64,000 nucleotides of DNA from IMG/VR virus record IMGVR_UViG_3300031760_000001, positions 128,001 to 192,000 of that record, one strand, 5' to 3'. Positions 5,437 through 52,548 of this stretch are shown piece after piece (the first letter of the stretch is position 1; each line of letters opens with the position of its first letter). Position numbers and translations under genes: made by a program. The DNA comes from a virus (Duplodnaviria > Caudoviricetes). Under the pieces are notes generated by a model, which did no database searches, had not been told where the DNA came from, and saw only the letters and a program-made list of their open reading frames with translations.

Positions 5437-5460
5437 AAGGGGGTTATTCATCACCCCCTT
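5437..5460 (-). terminator. Intrinsic terminator after the PRTase gene
   Basis: AAGGGGGT...ACCCCCTT stem overlapping the stop codon, followed by a T-tract on the minus strand. Confidence 0.55.
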
Positions 5461-6080
5461 TTTTCATTTTCTTTATATAAACGCCGTCTTTTCGGATATA
5501 TACTCCTGATGACATCATATGAATTGTTCTTCGGGTTCTCAACTGCCCCTAACGTAAGCAACCAGGCATCAACTCCATAAACTTGTTTAATTACATCTTT
5601 CGCTTGTTCATATGTTGCTCCACTGTCAATAACATTGTCAATTAAAATGACATTCCTTGCTGACTGTAGCATATTTTTTACATTATCATCATTAACAACT
5701 TGAAATTCAAGGTTGATTTTAGACACATCAACACCCATTTTCTTCTGTTTGTACAACATTTCCCTTGGTTTACTGGACAATATATCCAAAACTTTTGATT
5801 TCGTCCGTTTGGCTATGAAATTTGCTAATTTAAGTGTGTATGTCGCATACCCGTTATGTGACGGTATTGGTATCAGAACTGAATTCACTGGTACGTATTT
5901 CATCATTATCAATGAAGCCTGGTCAATTGCGTCAATGTCACCATCCTTGACACCATGTGCCAAAGCTCTTACTGAACCATAGCTAGCGCCAAGACAAGCA
6001 CTTGTCTCATTCAACACCGATTTGACAATTTCGGTTATCAATTGGTGTAACCTAGATTCGGAAATTAACATTTTTTTCAT
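5451..6080 (-). CDS. Type I phosphoribosyltransferase (ComF-like) with N-terminal targeting-like peptide
   Basis: VLIPIPSH and the PRPP-binding loop VILIDNVIDSGAT; N-terminus MKKMLISESRLHQLITEIVKSVLNE. Confidence 0.75.
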   Translation of the reverse strand: MKKMLISESRLHQLITEIVKSVLNETSACLGASYGSVRALAHGVKDGDIDAIDQASLIMMKYVPVNSVLIPIPSHNGYATYTLKLANFIAKRTKSKVLDILSSKPREMLYKQKKMGVDVSKINLEFQVVNDDNVKNMLQSARNVILIDNVIDSGATYEQAKDVIKQVYGVDAWLLTLGAVENPKNNSYDVIRSIYPKRRRLYKENEKRG

Positions 6081-9000
6081 TATTTAATAACATCAGAATA
6101 TTTTGGTTTTAGAATGTCAGGTGTTGTGTCATAATTCTTAGCTAAATAAGCGTATGACTTCTTAGTATCAACATCGTCATTACCAGCTCCACCCATTGTT
6201 GCCCAATTGGTTGGTTGATATTCAACTCTGTCAGCCCTGTTATCATAAAATGATGTATTAGCATAATAGTTGAATGACATAGCATTCTGTAATCTCTGGA
6301 CAGGACCAGTGATGTCACCCCCACCGATAAACTTAAATGAAATATTAACTTTACATAACATCGGTTGTACCCCATTACCCTCTGGATTCAAATCCCATTG
6401 TAATCCCTCTGAAACATTATAATCAAATGTAATATTGTCAATTACAATCATTTGATAATAAAAGTCACCAAGTCTCAATACACAATATGGTGGTCTACCG
6501 AATGCCAAGTTGTTAGCTGTCCTACCATTTAAATCTGACATGGTTTTAGTATTACCCTGTCTTGTACACTGTTGCAAGAAAGTACATCTAGCGTTGAAAC
6601 CCTCTGGTGTCATTGAATGAAAAGCTGGATTGAAATATTTCAATTTTTTCTGAAGTTTCTCGAACATAAGAGGATGGTCTATTTCATATTGTTTGTAAAA
6701 ATAATATTCCTGGTCATACCTTATCTTGTTTAGTTCACTACTTCTAGGCATTACACCATTATTACCATTAATAAGATAACACCCTTGAATTAACATACCG
6801 TCACCCCTATCAACCCAAAGTTCGTCAGAACAATCTTTAAATGGAGAATATCTGTCTTTATTCAAAACCATATTTTCATCATTCGGGGCATCACAGACAT
6901 CCCTTTCTCCCGATTTATCTTTAACTCTTGTTATACAATCCAACAATCTGTATAAAATTACATAAGTTCTAAGTTTTGTTATATTTTCAAGTGTTGTCTT
7001 TTTCTGTTCTAACATAGTAATCATGTAGTTATTTTCATCTGAAGAAAATTTTATAGGGGGTGCTGGTGTTGGATTATTAGGGTCACTTTCTGGTTCCAAC
7101 CGACTACTTGTTACAGCCAAACTCATTCCATCCTCCACTTGTTCAGCGAGATTATTAGTTTTTCCATATTTCCAGATACAGGAAAATTCATCCCCCCTAT
7201 TATCAGAATTGTTATCGATAATAAATTCCTTATATTTGTCTTTGTCATCATCAGTATCTTTTATTCCAAGTATACTCTTTAAAGTTTCATTAACACTTTT
7301 ACATAATAAAGCCGCAACTTTCTTAACAATAGCCATCAATTCCCAATTAAATGTATATTGGTAAGTTTCAGCATCTGGTATTACCTCCCAATCGTCAAGC
7401 GAAAACTCTATTTCTGGATTATATGGATAATCTTCTTTTAATTTATAATATAAATTAAAATTTTCACCTTCAAATACATTCATACAAATATCATCCTTTT
7501 TATATGGATATAAACCGTCATATTTTCCTGTTGGGTTTGTTTTACTACATACAATACCATCTAGAGCATCAACTAAATTATTACTCCATATATACATATC
7601 AACCCATCGAGGGGTACGTTGTTTACGATAATAACTGTTTCTAATTTTTTCAGCTTCAGGACTCGTATCACTAGTATTATAATATTCACCACTACATACA
7701 GAAACATTTTCATTAAATTCATCATACCATAAATCTGTAATATCATCAACCTTTTCCCACTCGGATTCTACCCATTTACCTCGTGTTGTTGCTGTGCTTG
7801 AAATACATTTATATACATCATCATCTTTTGTTACATAATCATTTTTCATATATTGCTTTAAAATCTTCCAATTTTCGATTATAGTAAAACAGTTTCCACC
7901 TGAAGGACTTTTTACTAATTCAGGATTTTGAAAACCTACACATAATTTAAATTCAGTATAATATTTATCATCAACTAGATGTTCACTATAATAAATGTAG
8001 CCAACATCAATATGACCATCTGAACTTGAAATAGCATCCCATGATTCATCAATATAAAGGTATGGAAGTGGTTTTAAATTTTCAACAATATTGTCACGTG
8101 TTATTAAATCCCATTTAGTTTCATCGAAATCATGATATCTAATATATTTTTCCTCAAAATTAGTTAAACAGGTATAATAAACCTCATTGTCATTATCATC
8201 CTTTTTCATTACAATATCACCTACATTATAATATTGTCTCAAATCTGTTATATTCAAAAATTTATCATAATCCCATTCACCACGGTATACAGTATCATCC
8301 TTTAAAACATACAAACCATTATCTTTCCAATAAGCAGCTTCTTTACTATAACTAAATATACCATCATATACATATTGAACTGGTCTTACGTCATTTGAAT
8401 AATCAAGACCTTCTATGTAAAAGCCAAATCCAACACATTCAGGCGTTGTGGTTTTAGATATATTAACATTATCATAATCGCCACGGTATTTTGGACTGGT
8501 TTTAATGAATGACTGTTTTTCTGGTTCAAACAATCGGTCTTTGAATATATTCAACAATGTGGTGTCAGTTATCGGGGTATCTGTTTTGGTACCATCATCA
8601 TAATTGTTATTTGTTTTAGCCTCTTGTGTAAAATATTCAATTATCTTGTCTTTTGAATAAATATGCCACATAGTACCATCTGGCTGTAATACACTATCCA
8701 TCCAAGTAAAACCTTTATATACTGGATGACCGTTTTCTGATTCAATTTCCTCAATGGTTGTTGTTGTTTTTTCAACCGTTTCAGATGTACTGAATTCCAT
8801 TGTACACTCAGCACGTCTATTAATTTTAGCCTCTCTTGAACTAACACTTCCTTTATCAGCCTTATTTTTAAATTGTATAACCTGTGCTGAAGTATCTGCA
8901 ACATCACTTGGGTCGATTTTAATATCATTCCATTGTGTATAACTTTTAAGCCAACTAATTATTGTGGTTGCTCTATCTTTAACCAATTGTTCATTACTTT

Positions 9001-11104
9001 TTTGATTGCCATGTGTTGTAGCGGTACCTTTACAGGATATCCTAGTTAATGTTTGTTCTTTAAAAATTTTATATATATTATTAACTCTTTGGTCATTTAC
9101 TCCTAAATTAATTAAACTTTTGGATATACTATTGTCTACTTTTCCTGTTTTTAACAAATAAAACGCTGCAGCAACCTCAGCTAACGTATAAGTGTTCTCA
9201 TCAACTAAATTATTATTCAACTTGTAATTCAAATTGTAGTTTTTACTATCACTATAATTTGCACTACCTAATTTTTCGCTCTTATTCCTATTATCAACCC
9301 TGTATTTAAAATTACCCATTTGTATATCACTAGTTAATTTAACAGATGATATACCGTGGTCTTCATCACCTGTCATTTCATAACCCTTATATTTGGTTGT
9401 GTCTGTATATAATGTATTAATATCTTTATCATTTAACGCAATATCACCACTACTGTTTTTTTGTGTATAATGACCAAACAACAGATACATTATAGCATCA
9501 ACAGTTGAATTATTCTTTTTGTTTGAATATCTATCATCACGTCCAGAATAATCATTAGGGAAAAAAACGTTGAATTTAACTATAGTCGGTTTAGTAACAT
9601 TTTCTTGTTCTTGTTTTGTCACTACTCTTGTGTCTTTATCAGGTTTTACTATTGGTGGGTTTAAATTTATATATTCATCAGTTAAATATGTCGGTGTTGT
9701 ATGTAAACCACCAGTCATATCATTCTTATTGTCAACATCACCATCAAAACAACCAGCAAAATACCTCAGATAATCATTTTCAGCATTACCGTTTGCCCTA
9801 TCTTTTCCCTTGTTTTCCACAGCATCATCATTGTCAGTCCACCAACTGGCATAGTCAACAGAAGACGGATGGTCTGTCAACATAAGGAAACTCAAATTAC
9901 CTGTCCTTTCTGAATTGACATATGTGTACACAGGCTCACCCCTACCAATGAACTCATTGGAATTCCATTTTGCTGAAGCAGTTTCCTGTATCTGTATGTC
10001 ATATGGCGGAAACCACATAATCCTACCCCCGAATGGTCCCCTCTGCTCCCAGGACAACGCTTGTTCAAATGAATAAGGGTCATAATCCTTCCAAGCAAGA
10101 TTCTCAATTGAAAACATACAAGATTTGGTATGTATGTTTTTATTTTCGCCACCCAAATATTTAGGAGTTATATTAACAAGATTGGTTCCAGTGCCCTTTG
10201 GGTCAAGGACTGAATTCTGTCTTCTTCTGTCCTGATTATGTTTACTTCTCCAGGCATAGTCGTAATTCTCTCCATTAACTCCATATTCAGTCAAATCCTT
10301 ATGATGTCCATCGCCAACAAGTTTATTATCCTTATCATAGGTTTCAATCCCCCAAAAGAAATTTTCCCATGTGTTGATATCACCATTAGCACCCCTTATT
10401 GTCTTTTCAAAATTATCATATTTGTAATGATGTGTCCATACCCTACAATATGGGTCATCATATCCGTTTCTTGAATAAGGAGTACCACCATCAACAACTT
10501 CCTTTCTCAATAAGTTCCTACCATGTGATTCACCAAACTGTTTTGTACCAACCTGACCGTTATAATCAACACCATTGGTGTGAAACTGTGAAATAATAGT
10601 TTTTAGTTTATTATTACGCATCAGTCTCTTGGTCTTATATAAAATGGAATTCTTGTCTGTGTATTTACCAGTGAAATTAACCTGGTCATCCTTGATATTG
10701 TCATCATCTAAATACAAATTCTTGTTTTCACCACCAGCCTTCTGTATGCGAGTTGTCATCTCACCCATCTTTGAACCATCGTGTGCGTCAGTGACAAATT
10801 CCATATAGTTGGTACCCTTGGTATAACTTGGATAGAAAGCAGGGGTAGCGGTAGCATCACCGTCACCGTTACGATAGGCATTCTCACCGACAGTGTTCAA
10901 CGTGATTACCCTCTCATAAGCATTACGCATCATATGGAGGGTCATAAAATCATGATTCATTTTATTGAAATTACCGATGTTGGTTGATGTCAGTTCCACC
11001 TTCAACCCCCTGGCTATTGTCATTGCCGTATTGATTGTCATATCACGGAGAACTTCACCGAAGCTTCCCAATGAACCGCTTCCTATGTCATCATAACTTG
11101 CCAT
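6080..11104 (-). CDS. Large baseplate/tube-initiator-like virion protein with OmpA-like and CBM-like insertions
   Basis: 1674 aa. Tube-initiator-like segments GRIMWFPPYD...WNSNEFIGRGEPVYTYVNSERTGNLSF and AFGRPPYCVLRLGDFY...WDLNPEGNGVQPM; OmpA-like KGTATTHG..SNEQLVKDRA...INRRAE. Confidence 0.6.
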   Translation of the reverse strand: MASYDDIGSGSLGSFGEVLRDMTINTAMTIARGLKVELTSTNIGNFNKMNHDFMTLHMMRNAYERVITLNTVGENAYRNGDGDATATPAFYPSYTKGTNYMEFVTDAHDGSKMGEMTTRIQKAGGENKNLYLDDDNIKDDQVNFTGKYTDKNSILYKTKRLMRNNKLKTIISQFHTNGVDYNGQVGTKQFGESHGRNLLRKEVVDGGTPYSRNGYDDPYCRVWTHHYKYDNFEKTIRGANGDINTWENFFWGIETYDKDNKLVGDGHHKDLTEYGVNGENYDYAWRSKHNQDRRRQNSVLDPKGTGTNLVNITPKYLGGENKNIHTKSCMFSIENLAWKDYDPYSFEQALSWEQRGPFGGRIMWFPPYDIQIQETASAKWNSNEFIGRGEPVYTYVNSERTGNLSFLMLTDHPSSVDYASWWTDNDDAVENKGKDRANGNAENDYLRYFAGCFDGDVDNKNDMTGGLHTTPTYLTDEYINLNPPIVKPDKDTRVVTKQEQENVTKPTIVKFNVFFPNDYSGRDDRYSNKKNNSTVDAIMYLLFGHYTQKNSSGDIALNDKDINTLYTDTTKYKGYEMTGDEDHGISSVKLTSDIQMGNFKYRVDNRNKSEKLGSANYSDSKNYNLNYKLNNNLVDENTYTLAEVAAAFYLLKTGKVDNSISKSLINLGVNDQRVNNIYKIFKEQTLTRISCKGTATTHGNQKSNEQLVKDRATTIISWLKSYTQWNDIKIDPSDVADTSAQVIQFKNKADKGSVSSREAKINRRAECTMEFSTSETVEKTTTTIEEIESENGHPVYKGFTWMDSVLQPDGTMWHIYSKDKIIEYFTQEAKTNNNYDDGTKTDTPITDTTLLNIFKDRLFEPEKQSFIKTSPKYRGDYDNVNISKTTTPECVGFGFYIEGLDYSNDVRPVQYVYDGIFSYSKEAAYWKDNGLYVLKDDTVYRGEWDYDKFLNITDLRQYYNVGDIVMKKDDNDNEVYYTCLTNFEEKYIRYHDFDETKWDLITRDNIVENLKPLPYLYIDESWDAISSSDGHIDVGYIYYSEHLVDDKYYTEFKLCVGFQNPELVKSPSGGNCFTIIENWKILKQYMKNDYVTKDDDVYKCISSTATTRGKWVESEWEKVDDITDLWYDEFNENVSVCSGEYYNTSDTSPEAEKIRNSYYRKQRTPRWVDMYIWSNNLVDALDGIVCSKTNPTGKYDGLYPYKKDDICMNVFEGENFNLYYKLKEDYPYNPEIEFSLDDWEVIPDAETYQYTFNWELMAIVKKVAALLCKSVNETLKSILGIKDTDDDKDKYKEFIIDNNSDNRGDEFSCIWKYGKTNNLAEQVEDGMSLAVTSSRLEPESDPNNPTPAPPIKFSSDENNYMITMLEQKKTTLENITKLRTYVILYRLLDCITRVKDKSGERDVCDAPNDENMVLNKDRYSPFKDCSDELWVDRGDGMLIQGCYLINGNNGVMPRSSELNKIRYDQEYYFYKQYEIDHPLMFEKLQKKLKYFNPAFHSMTPEGFNARCTFLQQCTRQGNTKTMSDLNGRTANNLAFGRPPYCVLRLGDFYYQMIVIDNITFDYNVSEGLQWDLNPEGNGVQPMLCKVNISFKFIGGGDITGPVQRLQNAMSFNYYANTSFYDNRADRVEYQPTNWATMGGAGNDDVDTKKSYAYLAKNYDTTPDILKPKYSDVIK

Positions 11105-11153
11105 TATATGAAATATCTGTTAACTATATTATATATATTATCTATATTGTTTT

Positions 11154-14100
11154 TTATATATAATAAATATTATTTTCACTTTTTCCGTTGGCTTTTATAT
11201 TACCAGCCCTAAACGCTAATGCTAATGTTTGTATGAATTTACCTGGATTATTTCTAAACTCTGTGTTCATCATATCAATATTATATGTTGCACCATTAAG
11301 TTTAAATTCCACACTACCTCCAAGATTAACATTAACATCATTTGATTGGGCGTTATTTTTTGATAATAAAGCATATAACCCTGGTATAAGAACTTGCAAT
11401 ATTTTATCTATTGGACCGTTAGGCATTGCTGCTAAATATTGGTCAGTATTAGCCGTCCTGACATTAAATCTACCGTCATTTATTGACCTCACATTACTTG
11501 CACCTGATATAATACCACCATTTGTATTTCCAACACCATCTTTAGTACCCCGTGGTCTCCAGAATGTATAACTGTCTCTTAACCACACTGATGTAGTATC
11601 GTTAAAAGGTATTCTTGATTGTCCTTGAGCTTCAGCCATTTCATCTAAACTTCTATCCAGTCTATGTAGTAGCTCAGATATTTGACTTTGACGAGTTACT
11701 GTAACTTCTTCTTCACCATTTAATATATGTGCCACTCTTGACATTACAGGGTCATTTTTATATGTATTATATAAGTTTTCTATTAATTTATCACGTTTAG
11801 TTTTATCTTCTTCATTAGTTATTGCAGCTATTGAAGCTACCAATTCACCCATTTTATTTATACCACCCTCTTCTAAAGCTTGTAGAATGTTTTTTTCAGC
11901 TTCACTTATAATACCAATCTGTGCAATATTTTTTTTAACAGTATTTCTATAATCTTCAATTAATGGTTGATTATTGTTAATAAAGTCTAATGTTGTTTGT
12001 GCTTCAACTGCCGCTATATCAGCAGTTTCCAGCATTGATTTACCTAATTCAGATATATATGTCTGACTACTAAGTAATTTGTTTTGTGTTTGAATATTTT
12101 TATCAGAAGCTTCTTTTGCAAGAGGATATAGCATACTACCAGCAACTGCTTGAAAATATTTAACACTTATTTCTTCAAGTTCAACCATGCTTCTAGTATT
12201 TTTAGCAATATCAATCAAACTATCCTTTTCATTATTTGGTAATAATATTCTAGCACGTTGTTTATCGGTCATATTAGCAATATCCTCCATCTTCATAGGA
12301 CCGTTTATTGTTTTAACTTTCCATGATAATGTTTTATTATCCCATTCAGCCCTGTTGCCAATTTCAGCTCTAGTATCTTTATCTAAATTAAATCCACTTA
12401 AAACTTTATCTATCATACCTTGTTTACGATTCTGACGAATTATGTCACGTGCTTCGCCTTGGTCCATTCCTAATATCTTCGCACGTTCATTAATCATCTT
12501 GTTTTCAAACCAATCATCAAAAACAAACTCACCTGTCTCTGCATCAAACCTAGGATTTATATCACTGAATATTGCAGCCATTCTCTTAGCCATATCACCA
12601 ACATCTGCACCAGCATCATACATCATTCCAAACGGGTCTGAATATGTTGCAGCCGCACCACCCAACACCTGTAATTTAGCCGATGTCTCAAGTACGTCAC
12701 TTAATGAACCATTGACCAATTTATCAGCAAAGGATGTAGCTGTGCTCAGATTGAAACGTGTCTGTTGTGCCCACTTACTCAATTCCATCATATTTTTAAG
12801 GCCACCTTTGAAATTGTATTTTTGTGCCAGTTTAAGATTGTTAGTTAAATCTTTAGCAAATTTAGTTGTTGATAACCCCATTTTAGTAATAGTATGATAC
12901 ATGTTGGTAAACATTTTATAACTAGTATCCATTGAAACATTAAAGATGTTCATAGTACCCATTAAACCAGCAACTTCACCCTGTGATATTCCAAAAGTCC
13001 TTGACATTGCTGTCATTTGGTTGTAGTTATCTCCTGTCAACAATAAACTTCTACTTGAATTATTAACAAAACTATCTTGCATTGATTTCATTTCTTCCCC
13101 TGTAATACCAAAAATTCTAGCAGTTTGAATTGCGGTCTTACGCATTGCTGAAGCAAATTTATCACCACTATATCCGAAAGTTAAACCAAGGTTTCTATAA
13201 ATTTTATCACTTGTTCTGATATTATCATTAAGTGCATCAGCCGCCTCATCTATACCATCAACGAGTTTTTTTACTTTATCAATAACTTGTGTAATATTTC
13301 CCATTAATGTTTTGAAAATTTCATTTTCCTGTTTCTTTTTAGATAAATTAAAATCTTTATAAGCTGTGTCTATTGCTGTTTGGGTTTCTATAACATTAGC
13401 ACTTATATTCGTTACAGCCCCAACAATTGCACCAACCATTAACCCCATTGGACCAAACAAAGCTCCAACACCCATGGCAACATTACCAACACCTTTTATT
13501 AAAGATGAACTTGCACCAGATACTTCCTTTTCCTGTTTAATCATTCGTTCAGTTTCAGCTACATTGAATTCCCTCATAGCCATCTGAGTCTGGGTAAACA
13601 ATTTAATTCTAGCCGCTGCCTCAGTTTTAGCCCCCTGTCTTAAACTCCTAGCAGCTTCGGTAGCTGTTTTAGTAGTAAATGCCGTTATTGTTGTTACTAC
13701 ATTATCAGCCACAACATTAGTCATTTCCATGTTAGCTTGGAATATTTTTTGGGTCTGGTCAAATAAATTTTTCCGTTCCTGTAAAGCTGATTTCTTATAT
13801 GCAACATCAATATCAACACCAGCTTTAATGCTTTGGGTTATTCCTGAAACAATATTAGTAATCTCCTTCATCAAATCAGCAAAACCCATTGCAATATCTT
13901 TTTTAGAGATACCAAATTGAACTCTTTCTTGTTCGTCACTTAAGTCTTTAATTTTTTTTCTAACACTTCTCTTGTTAGAATATTTACTATTTCTTAAGTC
14001 TTCAATTTGTCTTTGTAAATCATCTATTTTATCTTGTTTACTTTGTTTAGATAAATTGTTAAAATATTCACGCCTAGCATCTTTATCAATAGGTTTAGTG

Positions 14101-14210: not shown

Positions 14211-14257
14211 CTTGAATACATATATTTACTTAAATATAAATAGAAAAAAGACAACTT

Positions 14258-16013: not shown

Positions 16014-16015
16014 GT

Positions 16016-16645: not shown

Positions 16646-16710
16646 AATATTATACTTTGTTTATTCATTAATATATACATAAAACAGTAAAAATATCAAA
16701 TAAAATTAAA

Positions 16711-17343: not shown

Positions 17344-17380
17344 TAATATATAATAAAAGAATTTAAAGTACTTTAATAAT

Positions 17381-25349: not shown

Positions 25350-25430
25350 AATATCAAGATTTTTATATAAATATCATTGGAATTGAAAAAAAGTTGTATA
25401 TTATTATCATGTTATATATATATTATATTT

Positions 25431-27338
25431 ATGGGAAAAAACAATACTGTAAGTAAAGCATACGAAATTCTGAAGACATATGACGGAACCAACAACCAAA
25501 TCCGTTATTACAAGTCGTTGTATGACAACAACAGGCTTATCCTTGAAGATTTTGGTGTGCAATATATATTAAACAATTATGACTATGAACCAATCGAGGT
25601 TAATAAGAATGTGAAGATAGCTCCAGAACTTGGTGAGGTTATAAAGGAGAAATTCAATCTGGATTTTATACCACCAAAAATACATATCACAAGAATTATC
25701 GGTGAAATGGGAGGCAGTTATCACGGTTATGTCAAGTCAAAAAGTGGTTCACAGTTACTTTATCTGAAAAAGAGATATATTCTCGATAAATTGGTTGACA
25801 TTGACTATAAGACACTAGATATTGATTTCAGTGTTTATGACAATATGCCGTCGGCACAGGGTAGAAAATTGAAAGAACACCAAAAAACTGGTGTAAAATT
25901 CCTTGTTGCTAACAAAAAGTGTGTTCTAGCTGACTCAATGGGTACTGGTAAAACCACAACATCAATTATTGCAGCCCTTGCTGGTGGTTATAAAAATATT
26001 CTTATAATCACAACCGCATCATTGAAGACTAGTTGGACTAAAGACCTTGTGTTATATGTACCGAAAGAAGATATAAACATTGTAAGTGGGTCGAAATGGA
26101 CTCCTGGTTCAAAATTCACTGTTATAAACTACGATATTATTGACAATTTCTACGAAGTTCCAATGGAACCTGTTTTTAATATTGAAAATATTTACGATGC
26201 CAAGGGAAATATTGTTGATACACTTAAAGTTCCTGTAATGGTTAAAGACAAAACTACAGGTAAATTGGTTCAAAAAATGCAGAAGTCAAGAAAAAAGGCT
26301 GATATACAGAAAGCGTTGGCTGAATCACCTTTGTTTTGGGAAAACTATGATTGTGTTATTATAGATGAAGCACAAAAATTGTCAAACAATACTTCAATTC
26401 GTTATAAAACTATTTATGATTTCCTGAGAAAATCAAATCCAAGGGCTATTTTCCTGTTAACTGGTACCCCATTAACCAATAGACCAATCAACCTTTACCA
26501 TATTCTTAAATTAATTGATGCCGACATTACCAGGGATTATAATTATTTTCTTAAACGGTATTGTGGTGGTGTTGAATTACAACTTAAAGACGGTAGAACT
26601 ATTATCAAACACGGTGATGCTACCAATTTGGATGAATTAAGGGAAAGAATCAAGGATATCTACATCAGAAGATTGGCTTCCGAAACAGGTGAAATGGTTG
26701 GAAAAACAGTTATTAGAAAATATTATGACCTTAATGAGAAACAAAGCATTGAATATGATAGGCTTTGGAACGAATACCAGAATGCACAGGAGAATATTGG
26801 TAAATATGACAGTGACCAATACCGCCAGTTGGTTGAGGGTATGCTTGTAAGACAATATCTTGCAAAAGAAATGACCAAGAATACCATTGATTTGGCTGAA
26901 GAATACATTGACAGTGGTGAAAAGGTTGTCATTATTACCTGTTTCCAGGAAGAAATGGATATTTTGAAAAAACACTTTGGCAAGTCCTGTGTTGTCTATA
27001 ACGGTAAGATGTTACCTAAACAGAAAGACAAAGCACAAGATGAATTTATGAACAATCCTAAGATTAAAGTGTTCATTGGACAAGTAATCGCTTGTGGTGT
27101 TGGACTTTCATTGCCAGTAAGTAAGACAATTATCTTTAATTCATATGATTGGGTTGCTGCTAACAACGCACAATGTGAAGATAGAATTTACCGTTTAACA
27201 CAGACCCGTGATGTTGAGTGTATTTACCAATTGTTTACAGATTCGATTAGTCAAGATATGTTCGATAAGGTTATTTATAAACAACTTATATCTAATCAAA
27301 TTATTAAGTCTGAGAAACAAAAAGAAGCTATAAAATAA
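25431..27338 (+). CDS. SNF2-family (SF2) DNA helicase
   Basis: LKEHQKTGV, LADSMGTGKT, IIDEAQ, LLTGTPLTNRP, GVGLSL, QCEDRIYR. Confidence 0.92.
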   Translation: MGKNNTVSKAYEILKTYDGTNNQIRYYKSLYDNNRLILEDFGVQYILNNYDYEPIEVNKNVKIAPELGEVIKEKFNLDFIPPKIHITRIIGEMGGSYHGYVKSKSGSQLLYLKKRYILDKLVDIDYKTLDIDFSVYDNMPSAQGRKLKEHQKTGVKFLVANKKCVLADSMGTGKTTTSIIAALAGGYKNILIITTASLKTSWTKDLVLYVPKEDINIVSGSKWTPGSKFTVINYDIIDNFYEVPMEPVFNIENIYDAKGNIVDTLKVPVMVKDKTTGKLVQKMQKSRKKADIQKALAESPLFWENYDCVIIDEAQKLSNNTSIRYKTIYDFLRKSNPRAIFLLTGTPLTNRPINLYHILKLIDADITRDYNYFLKRYCGGVELQLKDGRTIIKHGDATNLDELRERIKDIYIRRLASETGEMVGKTVIRKYYDLNEKQSIEYDRLWNEYQNAQENIGKYDSDQYRQLVEGMLVRQYLAKEMTKNTIDLAEEYIDSGEKVVIITCFQEEMDILKKHFGKSCVVYNGKMLPKQKDKAQDEFMNNPKIKVFIGQVIACGVGLSLPVSKTIIFNSYDWVAANNAQCEDRIYRLTQTRDVECIYQLFTDSISQDMFDKVIYKQLISNQIIKSEKQKEAIK

Positions 27339-27399
27339 AAATCCAAACTATTTATAAATAAATAATATAACTTGGGTAATAAAAAATAATATAAATAGT

Positions 27400-28344
27400 A
27401 TGGCAAAGAAAAAGACAAAAGAACAATTTATTTCAGAGGCTGTGTTAATACATGGAAATAAATATGATTATAGTAAATTCAACTATCAAAATGCTCATTA
27501 TAAAAGTATAATTATATGTCCAGAACATGGTGAATTCTGGCAAACGCCACATGAACATATTAGTGGTAAACAAGGATGTCCTAAATGTGGAATTAAAAAA
27601 TGTACAGAAATACATACTAGTAACACTCAGGAATTCATTGAAAAGGCTAAACAAATACACGGTGATAAATATGATTATTCAAAAGTCGAATATATAAATA
27701 ATCACACGAAAGTATGTATAATATGTCCTGAACATGGTGAATTTTGGCAAATACCAAATTCACATTTAAATGGGCATGGATGTCCAATATGTGCTCGTAA
27801 TTATTGTAGGTTAAATTATAATATTTTTATTGAAAGAGCTAATAAAATACATAATAATAGGTATACATATCCAGAATTCATATATAGAAATAATAAACAA
27901 TATATTGAAATTATATGCCCAACACACGGATTATTTAAACAAAAATTAAAAACACATTTAGAGGGGTGTGGGTGTCCAGAATGTTATAAAAGTACGTTGG
28001 AAAATAATATAAGAGAATTTTTGAAGGACAATAATATAGATTTTATAGAACAACAAATGTTTGATTGGTTAAAGTATAAAAATCCGCTTAAGTTAGATTT
28101 TTATTTACCAGACTATAATATAGCGATTGAATGTCAAGGTCAACAACATTATAAACCAATTAAATATTTTGGTGGTGAAGAAAAGTTATCTATAATAAAA
28201 GAACGAGATAAAATTAAAAAAGAATTATGTGAAAAAAACGGAATAAAAATTGTATATTATAGTAATAAGAAAAACACTTGTCATTGTAACATTGAAGACG
28301 TTTATTTAGATTTAGAATTATTATTTAAAGATAATATAAAATGA
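27400..28344 (+). mobile_element. Free-standing putative homing endonuclease (3 Zn-ribbon repeats + DUF559-like nuclease)
   Basis: Three repeats of HG.KY.YS...IICP.HG.F.Q....H..G.GCP.C, followed by LKLDFYLPDYNIAIECQGQQHY...RDKIKKELC. Confidence 0.8.
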
Positions 28345-30975: not shown

Positions 30976-31587
30976 TTATTTTTTTAAATTTTCATTAATA
31001 TAGTTACTAACTATTCTATCTACCATTTCTTCCATTGCTTGATTCTGTGGTTGTTGATTAGCTGGAGGATTTGATATACTCTGAGTGAAAGACTGTGGTT
31101 GTTGTTGAGGTTGCTGTTGCTGTGGTTGTTGCTGATTACCACCACTAATTTTATTTATAAGATTTTGACTTCTTGTATTTTTTGCTTGTTGTGTTGTATT
31201 TTGCGCTGTATTATAATTATTTTGTGCATTAGTAGCATTTTGACCTGCAGATTGAACAGCTTTCTGAATCTGTGCAATTAACATATTCAAACCCTGTTTA
31301 ATATTAAAGTCACCATATCTTTGTTGCATATTATTAAGATATGCTAAATCTTTTTGACTAGCGTTTGTAATTTGTTTATTGGTTTTATTAGCTGTACGCA
31401 TGGTTTGTTTTGCTTGTTTTTGTGCTTCTTTAGCGTTCTGAACACCAGCATCGTTTCTATAATTACTATAGGCTTGTTTTGCACCTCTGAACATATCGCC
31501 AAAGAATCCTTCATTCATGTTTTCATTGATTGCCCTAACAACCATATCTCTTAACTGACTTTCAGTTATAGTAATATTTTGTTTCAT
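30976..31587 (-). CDS. Q/N-rich putative internal virion protein with targeting-like peptide
   Basis: MKQNITITESQLRDMVVRAINENMNE; QQQPQQQQPQQQPQ; TATTTAT at 31622-31628. Confidence 0.6.
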   Translation of the reverse strand: MKQNITITESQLRDMVVRAINENMNEGFFGDMFRGAKQAYSNYRNDAGVQNAKEAQKQAKQTMRTANKTNKQITNASQKDLAYLNNMQQRYGDFNIKQGLNMLIAQIQKAVQSAGQNATNAQNNYNTAQNTTQQAKNTRSQNLINKISGGNQQQPQQQQPQQQPQSFTQSISNPPANQQPQNQAMEEMVDRIVSNYINENLKK

Positions 31588-31643
31588 ATTGTTATAATAT
31601 ATTTTAATTCATTATTCTATTATAAATATCATTCAATTTTAAA

Positions 31644-32844: not shown

Positions 32845-32886
32845 ATAAATATTTATTGTTATAATAATTTAATGTATTATATTTAT
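32845..32886. promoter_or_regulatory. Divergent promoter region: palindromic ATAAATATTTAT plus a second TATTTAT
   Basis: 32845-32856 reads TATTTAT on both strands between divergent genes; another copy at 32880-32886. Confidence 0.55.
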
Positions 32887-32891
32887 ATAAT

Positions 32892-33296
32892 ATGGCACAG
32901 TATTTTTCTATAAATAGAGGCTCCGAACTACCGAAATTGCGTGTAGAACTTATTCAGGACGGTAAAACCGACTTCCGTAAATTCTATCTTGCAATTCAGG
33001 CAGCTGACTCTGTATCCTTTACTATGACAAACCTTGAAACTGGTATCAAAAAGATTGCCAAGGCACCAGCTGAGGTTGTCTATGATGAAAATTCTGGTTG
33101 TGAGGAAAGGTATCTTCTCCAATACACTTGGAAAAAGAGGGATACAAATGAAAGTGGTACCTTTATAGGTCATTTCCATATCAATTTCAATGACCAGGTT
33201 GTCGCTGACGGTATGGTTTTCCCAAAGGGTGAATTGATTGTGCCGATTGAAGAAGATATTGTAATAATCGTGAAAGACTCTTGTATAAAAAAATGA
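32892..33296 (+). CDS. BppU N-terminal-like Ig-fold virion protein
   Basis: FSINRGSELPKLRVEL...VSFTM...LQYTWKKRDTNESGTFIGHFHINF...LIVP. Confidence 0.6.
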   Translation: MAQYFSINRGSELPKLRVELIQDGKTDFRKFYLAIQAADSVSFTMTNLETGIKKIAKAPAEVVYDENSGCEERYLLQYTWKKRDTNESGTFIGHFHINFNDQVVADGMVFPKGELIVPIEEDIVIIVKDSCIKK

Positions 33297-35623
33297 ACAT
33301 AAATGAGGTTATAAATAAAATTGTTAGAAAGTTGTTAAACGAAACATATTTTAACACCGATTCTGTATCAGGACCGTATAAAGCTAACCGTACTATACAG
33401 TTGTTACATGACTATATAAATTCATTTCCACCACGTACAAGCAATTTTGTCATACCATATGTAAATTTAAATCCTAAACAGAAAAATATTTTAGCTTTAA
33501 TTGCTGAATGTAATGGAACTACACTTCAAAAAGTTCTTGATACTGTATATTACAGATATGCAAAAGTTAAAACAACAAAAGACATTGCCATTGTTCCAGA
33601 TGATTTTCTAGGTGAATTCTTAACAGCTGACACAAGGGAAAATGTTTATGTGACACAAGGCGAAAGAGACTCAGAAGCACAATTTGGTATGGCTTTAGTT
33701 GTTGGCAAATATTTAAACGATTTCAGAAACAGAATTGATTATGTACATTTTATTAAATATCTTAGTAAAGCATTAATAAAGTCTTATATAACCTGTATTG
33801 AGTCGCAATTAAAAAACCGTGTTGACTCACCATTAAGAAGTGACTTGTTCTTACCTACTGCTGGTAATAGTGTGTCATATAATGATGCTTTTAAAAATCA
33901 AGAAGAAAATATTTTACAAACAATACTTAATGATAAAAATATACGTTTAAAACCACAGGAAAGAACTATATTGCAAGCCTTTATGGAAGTTTGTGGTTCT
34001 AGTTTAAGTCCTGAAAACCTGGAAGCTTTGGCTGATTACCATGATACCAGAATAGCTAAAGGCAGCGATGGCAAATACGCTAAAGAAACCCAAGTGATAT
34101 ACAAAGAAATATCTGAAAGAACTGGAGTACCTCCTATTACTGTTGCAAAAGTGTTAAGTGGTATAATTAGCCAACTTAAAAAAAGTAAATATTCTAATTA
34201 TAACTGGAATTCTAATTTAAACATAGTTTCACCAAATGCACAACAGCCAGAACAAATTACCAACAACGTTCCTACTACACAACCAAAACAGGCTACTAAT
34301 AGAGTACCTAATCCACAGCAGACTTTCACACAAAAAATAACAAAAGCTGCTCCAGTTCAACAGCAGCCAACACAAAAACTAAGACCTAAAAAGAAACCAA
34401 ATAATTATACTATTAGTGGTGCCACACCAACCGATAATTATACCACTATGACTGAATCGAATAATAAAATCCAAAATAAAAACAAAATGAGAAAAAAAAT
34501 ACAATTAACCGAAAGTGTATTGAAACAAATGATTATCCGTGCAATTAACGAATCATTATATGAAGTAGGTAAACCAGTAAGCGCTTGGGAAAGCATTAAA
34601 AATTGGGCTTTTGCTGTTAGAAATGGAGCAGACCCAATTCATTGTAAGGAATTTAATGATTTTTATAAAATAATTATTGAAAACCCTTATTGTGAAAACG
34701 CTGTAAAAATGGGGTTTGCTTATGAAAGTAAAAATCAGAGTACTGTTGGTGGTAATACAACACTGAATATTGATAAAATGTTTGCAGTAACACCAAAAAT
34801 CGCTAGCGATGTTCTTACTGATTTTCTTACTGGCGAGAACTGCGTGGTAACAGATTTTCATACGAAAGATGGTGAAACTGTTGCTACAAAACCAGACTCA
34901 TTCGTCGGTGATAATGTGATTAAATGTGCAAAAGCTGCATTAAATGGTGAGACAAGCGACTTTTTCAATGTTCTTTGCAAACAACTTAGAACTTACGGTG
35001 CCCACTATTGTAGAAAACATTATGGCGAATTGTCAATGCAATGGGGTCTGGGTGCACAACAAATCGGTGGTGATAAATCAAATGCACTTGAAGATGAAGA
35101 AGATAGTGATTACACGGAAGATTTCAATGAACCAGGAAAAGATATTGAAATAGACGCTGGCAACAAGGTTGAAAGAGACCCATATTCAGGCGAAGAAGTT
35201 GACGACTCAAACGTTGGTTTTGATAAAGCGGCTGATGTAACTTCAGTTAAAAATGACTATGACGCACGTATGGTCAGACAACTTAGAAAAATCATTAACG
35301 ACCCACAAACCACTTTAGCACCACAAGAGAAAAAGGTTTTAAAGGCTATAATCTATATCAAATCACATGGCGTTAGTGACGACAGACTTGAGAAAATGCA
35401 AGGTGCATCTGAAACCCAGCAAAGACTAATATTATACGACCAAGTGGGAGAAATGCTTGGAATGCCTGTTATTAATGTCCAAAGAAGTATTTCATCTGCT
35501 ATTAGTAAAGCTAGACAAAGTAAACTAGCTAAAATGAATAATGTTGATGAACAAAGAAAGCAAAAACTCAATCAACTTATCAATGAGGTAATCAGAAAAG
35601 TTATGAAAAAATATTTAGGATAA
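33293..35623 (+). CDS. Tandem sigma-region-4/HTH-like protein with three targeting-like peptides
   Basis: ATG 33293 overlaps the upstream TGA. Two homologous halves end in L.PQE..(I/V)L.A and ETQ...Y..(I/V).E..G.P.I.V....S..IS....SK. Confidence 0.55.
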   Translation: MNINEVINKIVRKLLNETYFNTDSVSGPYKANRTIQLLHDYINSFPPRTSNFVIPYVNLNPKQKNILALIAECNGTTLQKVLDTVYYRYAKVKTTKDIAIVPDDFLGEFLTADTRENVYVTQGERDSEAQFGMALVVGKYLNDFRNRIDYVHFIKYLSKALIKSYITCIESQLKNRVDSPLRSDLFLPTAGNSVSYNDAFKNQEENILQTILNDKNIRLKPQERTILQAFMEVCGSSLSPENLEALADYHDTRIAKGSDGKYAKETQVIYKEISERTGVPPITVAKVLSGIISQLKKSKYSNYNWNSNLNIVSPNAQQPEQITNNVPTTQPKQATNRVPNPQQTFTQKITKAAPVQQQPTQKLRPKKKPNNYTISGATPTDNYTTMTESNNKIQNKNKMRKKIQLTESVLKQMIIRAINESLYEVGKPVSAWESIKNWAFAVRNGADPIHCKEFNDFYKIIIENPYCENAVKMGFAYESKNQSTVGGNTTLNIDKMFAVTPKIASDVLTDFLTGENCVVTDFHTKDGETVATKPDSFVGDNVIKCAKAALNGETSDFFNVLCKQLRTYGAHYCRKHYGELSMQWGLGAQQIGGDKSNALEDEEDSDYTEDFNEPGKDIEIDAGNKVERDPYSGEEVDDSNVGFDKAADVTSVKNDYDARMVRQLRKIINDPQTTLAPQEKKVLKAIIYIKSHGVSDDRLEKMQGASETQQRLILYDQVGEMLGMPVINVQRSISSAISKARQSKLAKMNNVDEQRKQKLNQLINEVIRKVMKKYLG

Positions 35624-41287: not shown

Positions 41288-41308
41288 TCCTTTCCACTTG
41301 TTTATTTA

Positions 41309-43867: not shown

Positions 43868-43907
43868 AATTTTTAAATTTTGTTTTATTGTTTATTATTA
43901 TATTCAT

Positions 43908-44492: not shown

Positions 44493-44568
44493 TACTAAAC
44501 ACGTTTATTACATATAAATATTAATAAAATAAAAAAATCCCCCATATTTTGGATGATTATTTAAAAAA

Positions 44569-45207: not shown

Positions 45208-45257
45208 AATTTCTTATATTTTATATATTATAATCATTAAATAAATACAATTTAAAT

Positions 45258-45284
45258 AAAAAAGCGGACAAATATTGCCCGCTT
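45258..45284 (-). terminator. Intrinsic terminator
   Basis: AAGCGGACAA...TTGCCCGCTT stem; the A-run on the plus strand gives a U-tract on the minus strand. Confidence 0.55.
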
Positions 45285-45306
45285 ATGAATATTCTTTATT
45301 TTACGT

Positions 45307-47088: not shown

Positions 47089-47128
47089 TTTATTAATTTG
47101 GTATTATTCTTTATTATTATATAAATAT

Positions 47129-48763: not shown

Positions 48764-48780
48764 TATTTTTAAATGTATTA

Positions 48781-48800
48781 TATTTATAAATATATAAATA
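48781..48800. promoter_or_regulatory. Divergent promoter region with TATTTAT on both strands
   Basis: TATTTATAAATATATAAATA between divergent ATGs at 48763 and 48808. Confidence 0.55.
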
Positions 48801-48807
48801 TGCTAAA

Positions 48808-49053
48808 ATGAAAAGTAAAATAATTAAACTCAGTGAAGCACAGTATAAACAGCTGATAAATGAAGACTATCCATTTTCATATCTCGGAAATGAATCTTCA
48901 GATACAAATCATGCTAGTGAGGTAGGTGCTAATGTGCCGTATGATTCACCTGATATTGAACCTGAGCCAACTGATGCTGACAAAATCAGCCACACATTAA
49001 GTAATAACTCCTGGTGGAACAGACACTATGGATTCAACGGATATTGTCGATAA
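48808..49053 (+). CDS. Small protein with targeting-like peptide
   Basis: MKSKIIKLSEAQYKQLINE. Confidence 0.65.
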   Translation: MKSKIIKLSEAQYKQLINEDYPFSYLGNESSDTNHASEVGANVPYDSPDIEPEPTDADKISHTLSNNSWWNRHYGFNGYCR

Positions 49054-49055
49054 AC

Positions 49056-50333
49056 ATGATACATTTTATAACAGAGGGTGGTAACGGAAACAAAGAATTA
49101 AAGACTCACCGCTGGTTTCTTCCAGACGGTGTACGCCACCATTTGGAAAAAGTCAGGGATGACAATAAAAAGGAAGAATTATCTAAAAACCATACCACAA
49201 AGGAGGCTTGGGACCACTTGGAGTTTATTCTTAACAGTGAGAAAGGTATCGCTTATAACGAAATGAAACGTATCAAAAACTGGTTTGACAAAAATTACAA
49301 CGCCACCAAAACAAAACAATATGAATTGTATGGTGGAAACATAATGAAGACTTGGGTTGAAAACCAGTTGAACAGCGCCACCCTGTATGTGAAAAAACAC
49401 AAGGAGGCACAACGTGCTATGGGTAAGGAAAACGCTTTCATAAAACCGCATGAAGCTGACAGGCAGAACACAGTATCAAAAGTTGATTCAAAAGTGCCTA
49501 CTTATAATCCAGCTACATTGAACAAACAAAACCGTCTTAAAGAATTATCAGATTTACATGAAAATAAGGTTATTGTTCTGGATGAATCACAGAGAATGAC
49601 CTTAAAGGAAGTGTTGAGCAATAAAATCAGAAGTGATTTTTTCCAGGAATTGGACACTTATGCTTCTGTTGAGGATTACGGTGATTGTTTCAAACTTTGC
49701 AGACAATATCTAGATTATGCGATAGGAAGAGGTTCATCCAGGGCGGTGTTTCAATTGGATGATGAAAAAGTCCTTAAATTAGCTATGAGTGAACAGGGTA
49801 TAGCTCAAAATAAGGCTGAAATAGACGCTTATCGAAAAACCACAAAATATAAAGACCTGTTCCCACGGATATTTAGCGTTGGCTATAATAACACTTATTT
49901 TATTACGGAGTATGTTTTACCATTAAATATATTATCTGGTTCACCACAGGGTGATAACTATGTTGATGATATATATAACTGTTTAGGTGTTTCAGAAAAT
50001 GAATATATGAAATTAACAGAAATCATTAAAAATAATACATTTGATAATAATGGCACTCTTAAAATGGAAGACCTTAAGGTAATGCCATTTGAAGGTACTA
50101 ACATGAGTGTATATGATTTCTTGAATATGAAAATGAAAGAAAATGCAAATTTTAATTTACTAATGCAATATCTACTTGATAATCCTAATTTGGCAGGTGA
50201 ATCATTCAAACAGCCAAATATGGGAATGACTAAGAGAAACGGAAAGGCCTGGATAGTTATTTTGGATAACGGATGGGACGGTGACGTTGCTCAGTTATAC
50301 AATTATCCTAATTTCGGTAAATTAAATGTTTAA
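49056..50333 (+). CDS. Two-domain protein with C-terminal protein-kinase-like domain
   Basis: G-loop IGRGSSRAVF, VLKLA, QNKAE, FITEYV, PNMG, ILDNG; ATG 49056 follows the upstream stop. Confidence 0.65.
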   Translation: MIHFITEGGNGNKELKTHRWFLPDGVRHHLEKVRDDNKKEELSKNHTTKEAWDHLEFILNSEKGIAYNEMKRIKNWFDKNYNATKTKQYELYGGNIMKTWVENQLNSATLYVKKHKEAQRAMGKENAFIKPHEADRQNTVSKVDSKVPTYNPATLNKQNRLKELSDLHENKVIVLDESQRMTLKEVLSNKIRSDFFQELDTYASVEDYGDCFKLCRQYLDYAIGRGSSRAVFQLDDEKVLKLAMSEQGIAQNKAEIDAYRKTTKYKDLFPRIFSVGYNNTYFITEYVLPLNILSGSPQGDNYVDDIYNCLGVSENEYMKLTEIIKNNTFDNNGTLKMEDLKVMPFEGTNMSVYDFLNMKMKENANFNLLMQYLLDNPNLAGESFKQPNMGMTKRNGKAWIVILDNGWDGDVAQLYNYPNFGKLNV

Positions 50334-50376
50334 ATAAACTATTTATTATAATAATAAGATATTAATACTATATAAA

Positions 50377-50751
50377 ATGAGAAGTTGTCTTGAAATTTAT
50401 TCAATGGATGCGCGTCACGTAATGGAAACACGCAGTGACTATACAAGAGTTAACCAATATTCAGAAACACACCCAGATGCTCTTGCTACTGGTGACAGAC
50501 AAGGTAAGGGTACTGGTCATGCAGGACATGGACACTGGTTGCCTCATTGCACATCACAAATCGGGGTTTTTGATTATTCAAACTTTGATACAGCAATAAC
50601 AAGCCATGCTGGTAACGATATGGATAATGAAGCCAGAAATATAGCTTTGACTAGAAGTTTGTACGGTCCTACAAATGCTTATAACCAGGGTGCAAATGCT
50701 GTTGACACCTCAATGAATGTGCTTGAAGGTCAGTTTGTTTTAATTGATTAA
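50377..50751 (+). CDS. Hypothetical (probable virion) protein
   Basis: 124 aa; TATTTAT at 50340-50346. Confidence 0.6.
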   Translation: MRSCLEIYSMDARHVMETRSDYTRVNQYSETHPDALATGDRQGKGTGHAGHGHWLPHCTSQIGVFDYSNFDTAITSHAGNDMDNEARNIALTRSLYGPTNAYNQGANAVDTSMNVLEGQFVLID

Positions 50752-50764
50752 AAAATGAATTAAT

Positions 50765-51688
50765 ATGGTCTTCGGCGGGTTGTTGGAACAGATATTGCTT
50801 AACGAATCAGCTTCTGTTGAGAATGTTGTAAAGGCTATGGATAACCATTCCAAGGTCATTATCAACTATCATAGTAACGGTGATGACAAGAATACTGGAA
50901 CACGTGTTATTGAGCCGATTACATATGGTCTGACAAAGGCTGGTAATCCTGTTATACGTGCATATCAACCATACGGTGACACAACCACCAGGACTCCTGG
51001 ATGGAAAATGTTCAGACTGGACAGGATTTCGTATTGGGAAGAGACAAAGGAAAAATTCTACAACGTTCCAAGTGTACCAGGACAAGAAGCAAACCTTGAC
51101 GGTGACGAAACAATGGCAACAGTCATCAAGTCATTCAGAAGCACAATGGGTAATGATGCGACAAACGGCGTGAATGTTGGTCCAAAGACAAAGGAGAAAG
51201 TGTATGCCAGAACATCAGGTGATGATACAGTCCAACTTGGAGCTCGAAACCTTAAAAGCCAGCAAAAGGGTATCAAGGCTGACATTGACAATAACAGGAA
51301 AGCCAATTCAAGTTTCAATATGTATACTAGCGGTACACAGGATGAAAAAGGTCCAAGAATCCCAGGTCAGAGTTACAAACCGAAAACAAACGGTTCAACT
51401 GAAGACGTTGACCCGAAAGAACTGGAAAGAGCAAGGGCACAGGTCAAATATGACACACCAGACGTTGACAACAAACTCAGTGACAAATACTGGAGTGACT
51501 ATGAACGCACATTAAGTCAGGAGGAACAAGACCAGATTGATATGGATATGAGAGATATGAATCGTCCAGACAGGAATATGAAGAGACGTGACGATAGATG
51601 GCAGTCCTCAACCGACAGTGGTTTCAAAAACAGGAAAGATTCAGGAAACAGAATATTATATAACATGGATAAAGAAAATAACAAATAA
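50765..51688 (+). CDS. Stand-alone WYL-domain protein with disordered C-terminus
   Basis: VIINY...GTRVIEPITYG...IRAYQ...GWKMFRLDRI. Confidence 0.8.
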   Translation: MVFGGLLEQILLNESASVENVVKAMDNHSKVIINYHSNGDDKNTGTRVIEPITYGLTKAGNPVIRAYQPYGDTTTRTPGWKMFRLDRISYWEETKEKFYNVPSVPGQEANLDGDETMATVIKSFRSTMGNDATNGVNVGPKTKEKVYARTSGDDTVQLGARNLKSQQKGIKADIDNNRKANSSFNMYTSGTQDEKGPRIPGQSYKPKTNGSTEDVDPKELERARAQVKYDTPDVDNKLSDKYWSDYERTLSQEEQDQIDMDMRDMNRPDRNMKRRDDRWQSSTDSGFKNRKDSGNRILYNMDKENNK

Positions 51689-51804
51689 AATAAATTAATA
51701 TAACGCAGACAATTTACCAATAAATGGAGGAGAAAATTGGTAAAAGTTAATAATTTTGATTTTTAATAAATCAAACATATATTAAATGATATAAGATTTA
51801 TATT

Positions 51805-52548
51805 ATGGCAAACGCAAAAAATTTATTAGATGCTGCAAAAAAACAGAAACAAAACGGTTCAAAACCCGCAGGGGCACAGAAACAACCCAGGCAAATGTTA
51901 CAGGAAGCATTTGTCTCAACTGATTTGAATGCCCTTGAAAATATGTATTTCAATCCACAGGAACAGAATAATGACCCCCTAAACGAGGCGTATGAGGTAT
52001 ATCCAAACGGTCAAAAACGTAAAGTGTATGACCCAGAGGAAGATATGAAAGAACTTGCATCATTCAACGTAAGCCAGGCAACATCAAAAATGCCAAAGGC
52101 TATCCTTGAGTCAATGATAAGAAACCCTTTGAATATGCCAACTGACCACATAGAGACAAGTGGCGACATTATGGATGAAGCACTACAGAACCGTACAATG
52201 GATATCCTTGACAAACTTGAAGCCAGGGATAGACAGGGTAAACCAACACAACAAAGGCAACAGCCACAGTCAGTCTATAATCAGCAAAGTTTGAATAAAG
52301 ACATTGACTATAACCTGGGCTCAGATATTGACTACAAGAAAATTGCTCAAATAATTGAAGCTGTTGTTGACAAGAAACTTGGACAATATAAACAGGTTCT
52401 TTTGAATGAATCCAGAAACGGTGGTCAGAATGCACCTAAAGTGTCGTTTCTTAAATTAGGTGATACATTTACCTTTATGGATGATGCTAACAATGTTTAT
52501 GAGTGCAAGATGGTTTATAAAGGAAAAGGTAAAGTTAAACAGAATTAA
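51805..52548 (+). CDS. Hypothetical Q-rich protein (possible scaffold/internal protein)
   Basis: LQE/LNE sites; KIAQIIEAVVDKKL...VLLNE. Confidence 0.6.
   Translation: MANAKNLLDAAKKQKQNGSKPAGAQKQPRQMLQEAFVSTDLNALENMYFNPQEQNNDPLNEAYEVYPNGQKRKVYDPEEDMKELASFNVSQATSKMPKAILESMIRNPLNMPTDHIETSGDIMDEALQNRTMDILDKLEARDRQGKPTQQRQQPQSVYNQQSLNKDIDYNLGSDIDYKKIAQIIEAVVDKKLGQYKQVLLNESRNGGQNAPKVSFLKLGDTFTFMDDANNVYECKMVYKGKGKVKQN

Follow-up and report, generated by a model that had tools for sequence, protein, structure and literature searches.

Several proteins encoded in a 64,000-nt stretch of virus DNA have nothing in common except one short peptide, and the question raised by this locus is why the same peptide should be found on a phosphoribosyltransferase (PRTase)-fold protein, a Gln/Asn-rich protein, a sigma-like protein and a small protein of 81 aa. 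The stretch (hereafter the window) comprises bases 128001-192000 of a 244,784-bp virus record with 36% G+C and an estimated completeness of ~69%; coordinates refer to the window unless marked as genome positions. The initial annotation had proposed a modular address label resembling the capsid-targeting sequence (CTS) of phage T4, which would load proteins into the head and be clipped off at maturation. Based on the results of this study, the peptide, called the tag below, is considered with moderate confidence to be a T4-CTS-like cargo-loading propeptide cut by the head protease. All predictions of the T4-style proposal that could be tested at the sequence level were borne out, but the initial list of carriers was over-extended.

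A tag conserved at the peptide level

A hidden Markov model (HMM) was seeded with seven copies of the tag and iterated over all six-frame open reading frames (ORFs) of the 245-kb genome. At convergence, 16 copies spread over 15 ORFs were matched at domain E values of 1e-10 to 2e-7, and the next-best match had an E value of 0.35, which leaves a gap of six orders of magnitude. With this sharp separation, the earlier observation that similar peptides sit on otherwise unrelated proteins is real; the copies are more numerous than had been claimed, and the peptide coordinates given at that time were all correct. The tag directly follows the initiator codon in 14 of the 16 copies. For example, the ORF at genome position 60704 has a GTG start, giving M-K-Q-I-I-K-L-T-E-S. 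The two internal copies are a second one in this ORF and the one at window position 34487. Further degenerate copies were found at genome positions 195924-196559, 219171-219563 and 227506-229131.

In the Leu, Thr and Ser columns of the tag at least four different codons are used each, Ser being encoded by both AGY and TCN, and of the pairs of identical residues a fraction of 0.51 are encoded by one and the same codon, slightly above the 0.42 expected from codon usage. Since synonymous codons vary at conserved residues, it is the peptide and not the DNA that is conserved, and the similarity reflects selection at the peptide level and not a DNA repeat.

Hundreds of relatives of this phage are present in IMG/VR, the best 80 of which share 50-89% capsid-protein identity with it, while a near-identity DNA search of phage records matched nothing. 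Complete relative genomes among those checked measure 339-412 kb, and the clade hosting the tag is one of abundant, uncultured 350-410-kb giant phages of gut and rumen. The 89 non-redundant tags of the present genome and the 80 relatives gave a consensus of ~24 residues, K-[IV]-I-R-L-T-E-S-D-L-H-R-I-V-K-E-S-V-[NK]-R-I-L-x-E. Beyond position 24 every residue is at or below 18%, and conservation ends at E24, i.e., at [LIVM]-x-E; the earlier remark that the LNE and INE endings fit the (I/L)-x-E rule of the T4 prohead protease gp21 agrees with this. An independent sample of 103 tags was retrieved with a degenerate DNA pattern spanning tag positions 1-11 only, and it had Glu at position 24 in 86% and L, I, V or M at position 22 (P3) in 96% of cases. 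Over the two sets, E24 is present in 71-86% and a hydrophobic P3 in 82-96% of the tags. The tag was N-terminal in 81/89 of the first set and in 97/103 (94%) of the pattern-drawn set, whose tagged proteins have a median length of 126 aa.

There are three hydrophobic-x-Glu sites within the consensus (L-T-E at 5-7, [IV]-K-E at 14-16 and [LI]-x-E at 22-24). Short-form tags stop at the second of these, as in an 81-aa protein of the window in which the tag ends L-I-N-E. The tag combines a short beta-strand (K-x-I-R-L-T) with an amphipathic helix behind it.

With a profile built from 55 tags, 11,429 clusters were matched at E<=1e-3, 874 of them at E<=1e-10, in a library of 1.84 billion representative proteins clustered at 50% identity. 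The top matches are polyproteins bearing 2-4 tags; in the best 150 library proteins 131 N-terminal and 185 internal copies were counted, and many of the internal copies retain their own Met, preceded by x-E-S-[KR]. A small natural polyprotein resembling these dominant multi-tag proteins is encoded in the present genome at 60102-60704 (minus strand), as a 200-aa protein with full tags at the GTG-initiated N-terminus and at residue 111. A scan of genome and relatives, as had been suggested earlier, gave 21 tag copies in a complete 401-kb relative beside the 16 found here. The 484-kb phage LR756508.1 has about 10 diverged copies (M-R-L-T-E-+-K-L-+-+-I-V-K-E-E-I-x-+-V-L-x-E), and its capsid protein again contains L-L-K-E|A. 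As the L-x-E rule holds in this distant phage too, it could not be used to ask whether tag endings change together with the specificity of the protease. No copies were found when the tag profile was run against the T4 and RM378 genomes, a full-text literature search for motif strings returned chance matches only, and a paper on Jug phages does not mention such a tag.

Links between the tag and the head genes

The head module of this phage is T4-like. It comprises a Peptidase_S77 (gp21-type) protease at genome positions 209952-210698 (82.6 bits, with a cut-off of 27), a Gp23-family capsid protein at 199301-201364, a gp20-type portal at 213236-215287 and a T4-type large terminase at 216074-217966, all on the minus strand. 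Among the capsid proteins of the clade (63 distinct sequences), the conserved mature N-terminus is preceded by L-[IL]-x-E|A-T-A-S-D-N-S-G, in which P2 is variable. Flanking blocks (an ENQ motif and V-x-x-x-V-R-R) align this site with the L-T-E|A cut position of T4 gp23. The capsid site and the end of the tag are therefore of the same hydrophobic-x-Glu kind.

A promoter-like motif, TATTTATA, is shared by tagged and head genes. When motifs were counted in windows 10-60 nt upstream of genes, TATTTATA ranked first among 56 permutations of its letters, with 30 occurrences versus at most 17 for non-overlapping words, and its positions peaked 24-44 nt before start codons. It lies upstream of 10/16 tagged genes and of 40/256 others (Fisher p 6e-5), an enrichment which upholds the earlier claim that the carriers lie behind the TATTTAT motif of virion genes. 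In the relatives it precedes 55/95 tagged genes. Among the other genes headed by it are those for the capsid, portal and scaffold-like proteins and numerous large ones that may be structural.

Gene order points in the same direction. Along the minus strand, the portal gene is followed by a 311-aa gene, a tagged 132-aa gene, a 143-aa gene, a tagged 117-aa gene and then the protease gene, so that the two tagged genes occupy the slot of the T4 core proteins gp67 and gp68. Four further tagged genes lie within 6 kb of capsid or portal genes. Tagged genes near the capsid gene have only 0-2 orthologues in 80 syntenic loci, whereas most flanking genes, including those for the capsid, scaffold-like protein, protease and portal, have 5-20. 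At the places of the non-conserved tagged genes, relatives bear other tagged genes.

The tag also resembles a protein of the head region itself. The gene directly upstream of that for the capsid codes for an acidic, scaffold-like protein of 562 aa, and the tag profile aligns with residues 28-49 of it, with an hhalign score of 22.3 and a P-value of 1e-4 that is somewhat optimistic, as the resemblance was spotted by eye before the test. In the controls, 100 column shuffles scored 9.5 +/- 2.4 (maximum 17.8) and the reversed alignment 7.7. Among 17 head-region families, the scaffold-like protein is the only one that matches the tag, the others scoring at most 15. The N-terminal domain of this protein, too, has [LI]-[LI]-x-E at its end, with an acidic tract behind it. 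PDB searches with the tag and scaffold profiles gave nothing significant.

Two observations on the neighbourhood may be added. The scaffold-like protein (genome 201426-203114, minus strand) is more than a helical scaffold, with a conserved folded middle between very acidic tracts in which the motifs Y-K-x-x-D-G-E-Y-D-L-T, N-L-G-Y-T-D-N-Y-Q and G-V-P-K-G-T-x-K-P-W occur. Between the protease and scaffold-like genes (genome 203251-209832, minus strand), 241-aa and 1945-aa proteins are encoded whose N-terminal 60 residues are nearly identical; these residues may be a common anchor domain of decoration proteins.

Carriers in the window and their cargo

Three of the carriers proposed for the window, the PRTase, Gln/Asn-rich and 81-aa proteins, were recovered by the HMM. 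In the PRTase-fold protein (gene 5451-6080, minus strand) a full N-terminal tag at 6006-6080 (E 1.5e-7) ends V-L-N-E|T-S. The gene is coupled through TAATG to a 1674-aa gene, and the operon is headed by TATTTATA at 11162-11169 (minus strand). In 28 orthologues the Glu at the border between tag and domain is invariant, while the tag sequence varies and its length changes in 4-residue steps; three of the 28 have two tandem tags. An AlphaFold2 (AF2) model from the 28-sequence alignment, with a predicted local distance difference test (pLDDT) score of 80, has the tag as a helix at residues 8-28. Its pLDDT falls below 50 at residues 23-29, a poorly predicted hinge that coincides with the V-L-N-E|T-S border, and the domain behind is confidently modelled. 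The PRTase fold was confirmed by Foldseek, which matched the model to adenine and hypoxanthine-guanine PRTases at E 3.8e-5, with ComF among the matches.

The Gln/Asn-rich protein of 203 aa (gene 30976-31587, minus strand) has a full N-terminal tag at 31510-31587 (E 1.5e-9) and TATTTATA 41 nt upstream at 31621-31628. The 81-aa protein (gene 48808-49053, plus strand) has its short-form tag at 48808-48864 (E 2.7e-8), with TATTTATA 27 nt upstream at 48781-48788.

The fourth carrier is a 776-aa sigma-like protein (gene 33293-35623, plus strand), which consists of two homologous halves (28% identity, E 1e-10) with a full tag between them at 34487-34564 that has its own Met (E 2.5e-9). Three tags had been proposed for this protein. 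The internal one is firm, the C-terminal one is a weak half-tag comprising the helix part only (35567-35611; half-tag HMM E 0.065 among 272 proteins), and the N-terminal MNINEV... piece was not significant. The nearest ESM-Atlas clusters are sigma-70 r2/r4 and helix-turn-helix families (score 0.93), and the sigma-70 r2/r4-like assignment is a lead only. Besides the tag, a Gln/Pro/Thr-rich linker separates the two halves, an architecture that suggests either a gene fusion or a tandem that can be cleaved. The gene lies in an operon with a 134-aa gene headed by two TATTTAT[AT] motifs at 32850-32887 (plus strand). The window carriers without a motif of their own, namely the PRTase-fold protein and the sigma-like protein, thus sit in operons behind one, led by the 1674-aa and 134-aa genes, respectively.

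The case of the kinase-like ORF (49056-50333, plus strand; phrog_4301 match for the domain) is intermediate. The tag-like peptide claimed just before the kinase domain, at 49563-49610, was not matched by the iterated HMM, but a comparable degenerate hh[ST]E..h..h.E motif (h, hydrophobic) is kept at the border of the kinase-like domain in five relatives, and one relative has the domain by itself, preceded by MKILLSESQF.... This ORF and its orthologues also start with seven residues, M-[IL]-H-[FL]-[IL]-x-E|[GS] (49056-49076, plus strand), a mini-leader that has the size of the T4 CTS and a protease-type end site and is distinct from the 24-residue tag. Neither the HMM nor the half-tag model supported the three remaining candidates of the initial annotation, i.e., the WYL protein (50765), the 247-aa protein (51805) and the 138-aa protein (17381), which are not regarded as carriers. 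The WYL domain itself (50765-51688, plus strand) scored 22.3 bits, barely above its cut-off, and the C-terminal half of that protein is long, charged and of low complexity.

Carriers elsewhere in the genome include an EcoRI-type adenine methyltransferase (1e-90) and a phage lysozyme, the domain of which sits behind a Gly/Ala-rich hydrophobic (membrane) segment. Many of the others are small proteins without a family, and there is no similarity between carriers beyond the tag. Pfam and PHROGs gave almost nothing on the carriers of the window, and PDB sequence searches with the PRTase-fold, sigma-like and kinase-like proteins gave nothing significant.

As a separate observation, a DNA helicase gene (phrog_62, 4.7e-86) is followed by a gene for an HNH homing-type endonuclease (phrog_559, 1.6e-71) at 25377-28344 (plus strand), and the endonuclease gene has TATTTATA 51 nt upstream.

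Proposed head loading, rival explanations and known systems

If the tag is a cargo-loading propeptide, it would steer proteins that are expressed late into the core of the prohead, probably as a mimic of the N-terminal element through which the scaffold-like protein of this T4-like giant phage itself assembles. The gp21-type serine protease in the prohead would cut after [LIVM]-x-E sites within and at the end of the tag, releasing the cargo and dividing multi-tag polyproteins into modules in the same way. The cargo would then remain with the DNA and possibly be ejected into the host. It would consist mostly of small proteins, along with the PRTase-fold enzyme, the EcoRI-type methyltransferase, the membrane-segment lysozyme and the tandem sigma-like protein. 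Core binding, cleavage, head retention and injection are inferred here from the sequence features described above, and the types of cargo suggest a possible role in host takeover or counter-defence. Scaffold mimicry appears likely as the docking principle. The more specific scheme, in which the tag copies the scaffold N-terminal assembly element, any tagged protein co-polymerises into the prohead core and the protease cuts both tags and joints, is put forward tentatively, with somewhat less than even confidence.

Several points weigh against head loading. The terminal Glu is absent from some carriers, e.g., the methyltransferase. The [LI]-x-E pattern is short and common in helices, with 964 occurrences in the genome versus ~775 expected, and its density per protein, computed genome-wide, does not single out a clear set of substrates. 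Both the methyltransferase and the membrane-segment lysozyme have obvious roles outside the virion. Moreover, the co-occurrence of tag and S77 protease is confounded by phylogeny, and a tag-bearing, 95%-complete IMG/VR record of 317 kb has no Peptidase_S77 match at E<=1e-3; its protease may be diverged, split or absent, and a split protease was reported in Jug phages (PMC12880540). In sequence, the tag and the T4 CTS (MKTYQEFIAE) are not homologous. Finally, capsid-protein identity to cultured relatives never exceeds 38%, the best deposited matches at that level being an uncultured 484-kb phage and Flavobacterium and Rhodothermus phages.

The rival that survives best holds that the tag is a strand-plus-helix association module, in effect half of a ribbon-helix-helix (RHH) domain, which has no packaging role and whose terminal hydrophobic-x-Glu is merely helix chemistry; its partners would be other tagged proteins, a cytoplasmic complex or a DNA-bound assembly. 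This is judged unlikely, though it also draws on evidence that counts against head loading. Pfam has no model for the tag, and its only matches are sub-threshold RHH families (RelB_like_antitoxin, Omega_Repress and DUF6290). In addition, a single-sequence AF2 model of a natural two-tag protein pairs the tag strands, a low-confidence hint at pLDDT 63, and many proteins bear 2-4 tags. Like the RHH domains of the RelB, omega and CopG type, the tag has a basic beta-strand at its N-terminus and a helix after it. However, those domains are defined as ~45-residue strand-helix-helix units at a curated score, whereas the conservation of the tag stops after one helix, the second RHH helix is absent, every RHH match lies below its cut-off (the best, RelB_like_antitoxin, at 15.6 bits versus 27), no sequence in the PDB matched, and the tag does not form a repressor but is attached to enzymes and polyproteins. 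Nor does an association module account for the bias of the tags to the N-terminus (94%), a border Glu that is invariant behind tags of variable length, the promoter motif of virion genes, the location between portal and protease or the similarity to the scaffold-like protein. It is also compatible with packaging rather than opposed to it, and strand pairing could equally be how tags dock on the scaffold-like protein, at its strand M-x-K-x-I-R-S.

Less probable still is that the tag serves as a leader recognised by some other trans-acting factor of the clade, be it a chaperone, a modifying enzyme or, with the tag as a degron, a proteolytic timer. No candidate enzyme was seen beside the tagged genes, which scatter over the genome, and the tag lacks a typical modification site (Cys or a Ser/Thr cluster); both its end, a site of the capsid-maturation type, and its resemblance to the scaffold-like protein speak for the head instead. 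Chance, low complexity or a DNA-level repeat, e.g., a mobile cassette of promoter and start, could be imagined in an AT-rich genome with frequent MKK starts, and is ruled out by the E-value gap, the free synonymous codons, the internal copies and the 11,429 clusters in an independent library.

If the tag is indeed a label for head loading, the packaged proteome of an uncultured giant-phage clade could be read from the sequence alone. This proteome would likely include injected proteins, and the enzymes, the methyltransferase and the sigma-like factors would be candidates for injection. The tagged set is large, almost wholly unannotated and fast-evolving, a profile to be expected of proteins that counter defences or take over the host. 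Just as the T4 CTS is used to bring foreign proteins into heads, the tag would be a candidate for the same use in capsids of this kind. Scaffold mimicry, moreover, offers a concrete hypothesis for the mechanism of T4-type targeting, which a review of T4 left unresolved (PMC9026906).

Among known systems, the Dar proteins of phage P1 illustrate what a head-carried enzyme could do, and a head-carried, DNA-acting enzyme of this kind would be paralleled by the tagged EcoRI-type methyltransferase. In P1, the capsid-packaged DarB methyltransferase/helicase protects the incoming DNA. The Dar proteins are loaded by ordered protein-protein dependencies, without a common cleavable tag. The P1 virion has been described elsewhere (PMC9024508).

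Giant phages of the phiKZ type are comparable in that many head-internal proteins are cut after Glu by a gp21-related protease, propeptide sites are redundant and the mass of cargo is large. The cleavage logo of their protease is S/A/G-x-E. These proteases, gp175 of phiKZ and gp245 of SPN3US (PMC9026906, PMC10052503), belong to a different phage lineage and, in contrast to the S77 protease of the present phage, are only distantly related to gp21 and have their own cleavage logo (PMC9026906). No single shared portable tag has been described for them.

The closest likeness is to T4, in which the CTS is present on IPI, IPII, IPIII and Alt and is removed by the prohead protease gp21, the rule being L/I-x-E; the 10-residue CTS of IPIII has been used to package foreign proteins, and the IP genes are poorly conserved (PMC9026906). 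In both systems a tag is found at the N-terminus of otherwise unrelated, mostly small and non-conserved proteins and ends at L/I-x-E, and both have a gp21-family protease, a Gp23 capsid protein bearing a site of this type and hypervariable cargo genes. The tag described here differs in having 24-26 residues, a strand-plus-helix shape and three nested cut-type sites, as against 10 residues in T4; in being borne by 16-21 carriers per genome, as against about 4; in its cargo, which includes enzymes and a sigma-like protein; in its use at internal joints of polyproteins; and in its resemblance to the phage's own scaffold-like protein, in a system known from sequence alone. It occurs in more than 11,000 protein clusters, for which there is no database model and no paper was found in the full-text search. 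The principle of the CTS and internal proteins is thus known from T4, and what is new is a non-homologous tag, more than twice as long, with nested sites, which also forms the joints of polyproteins.

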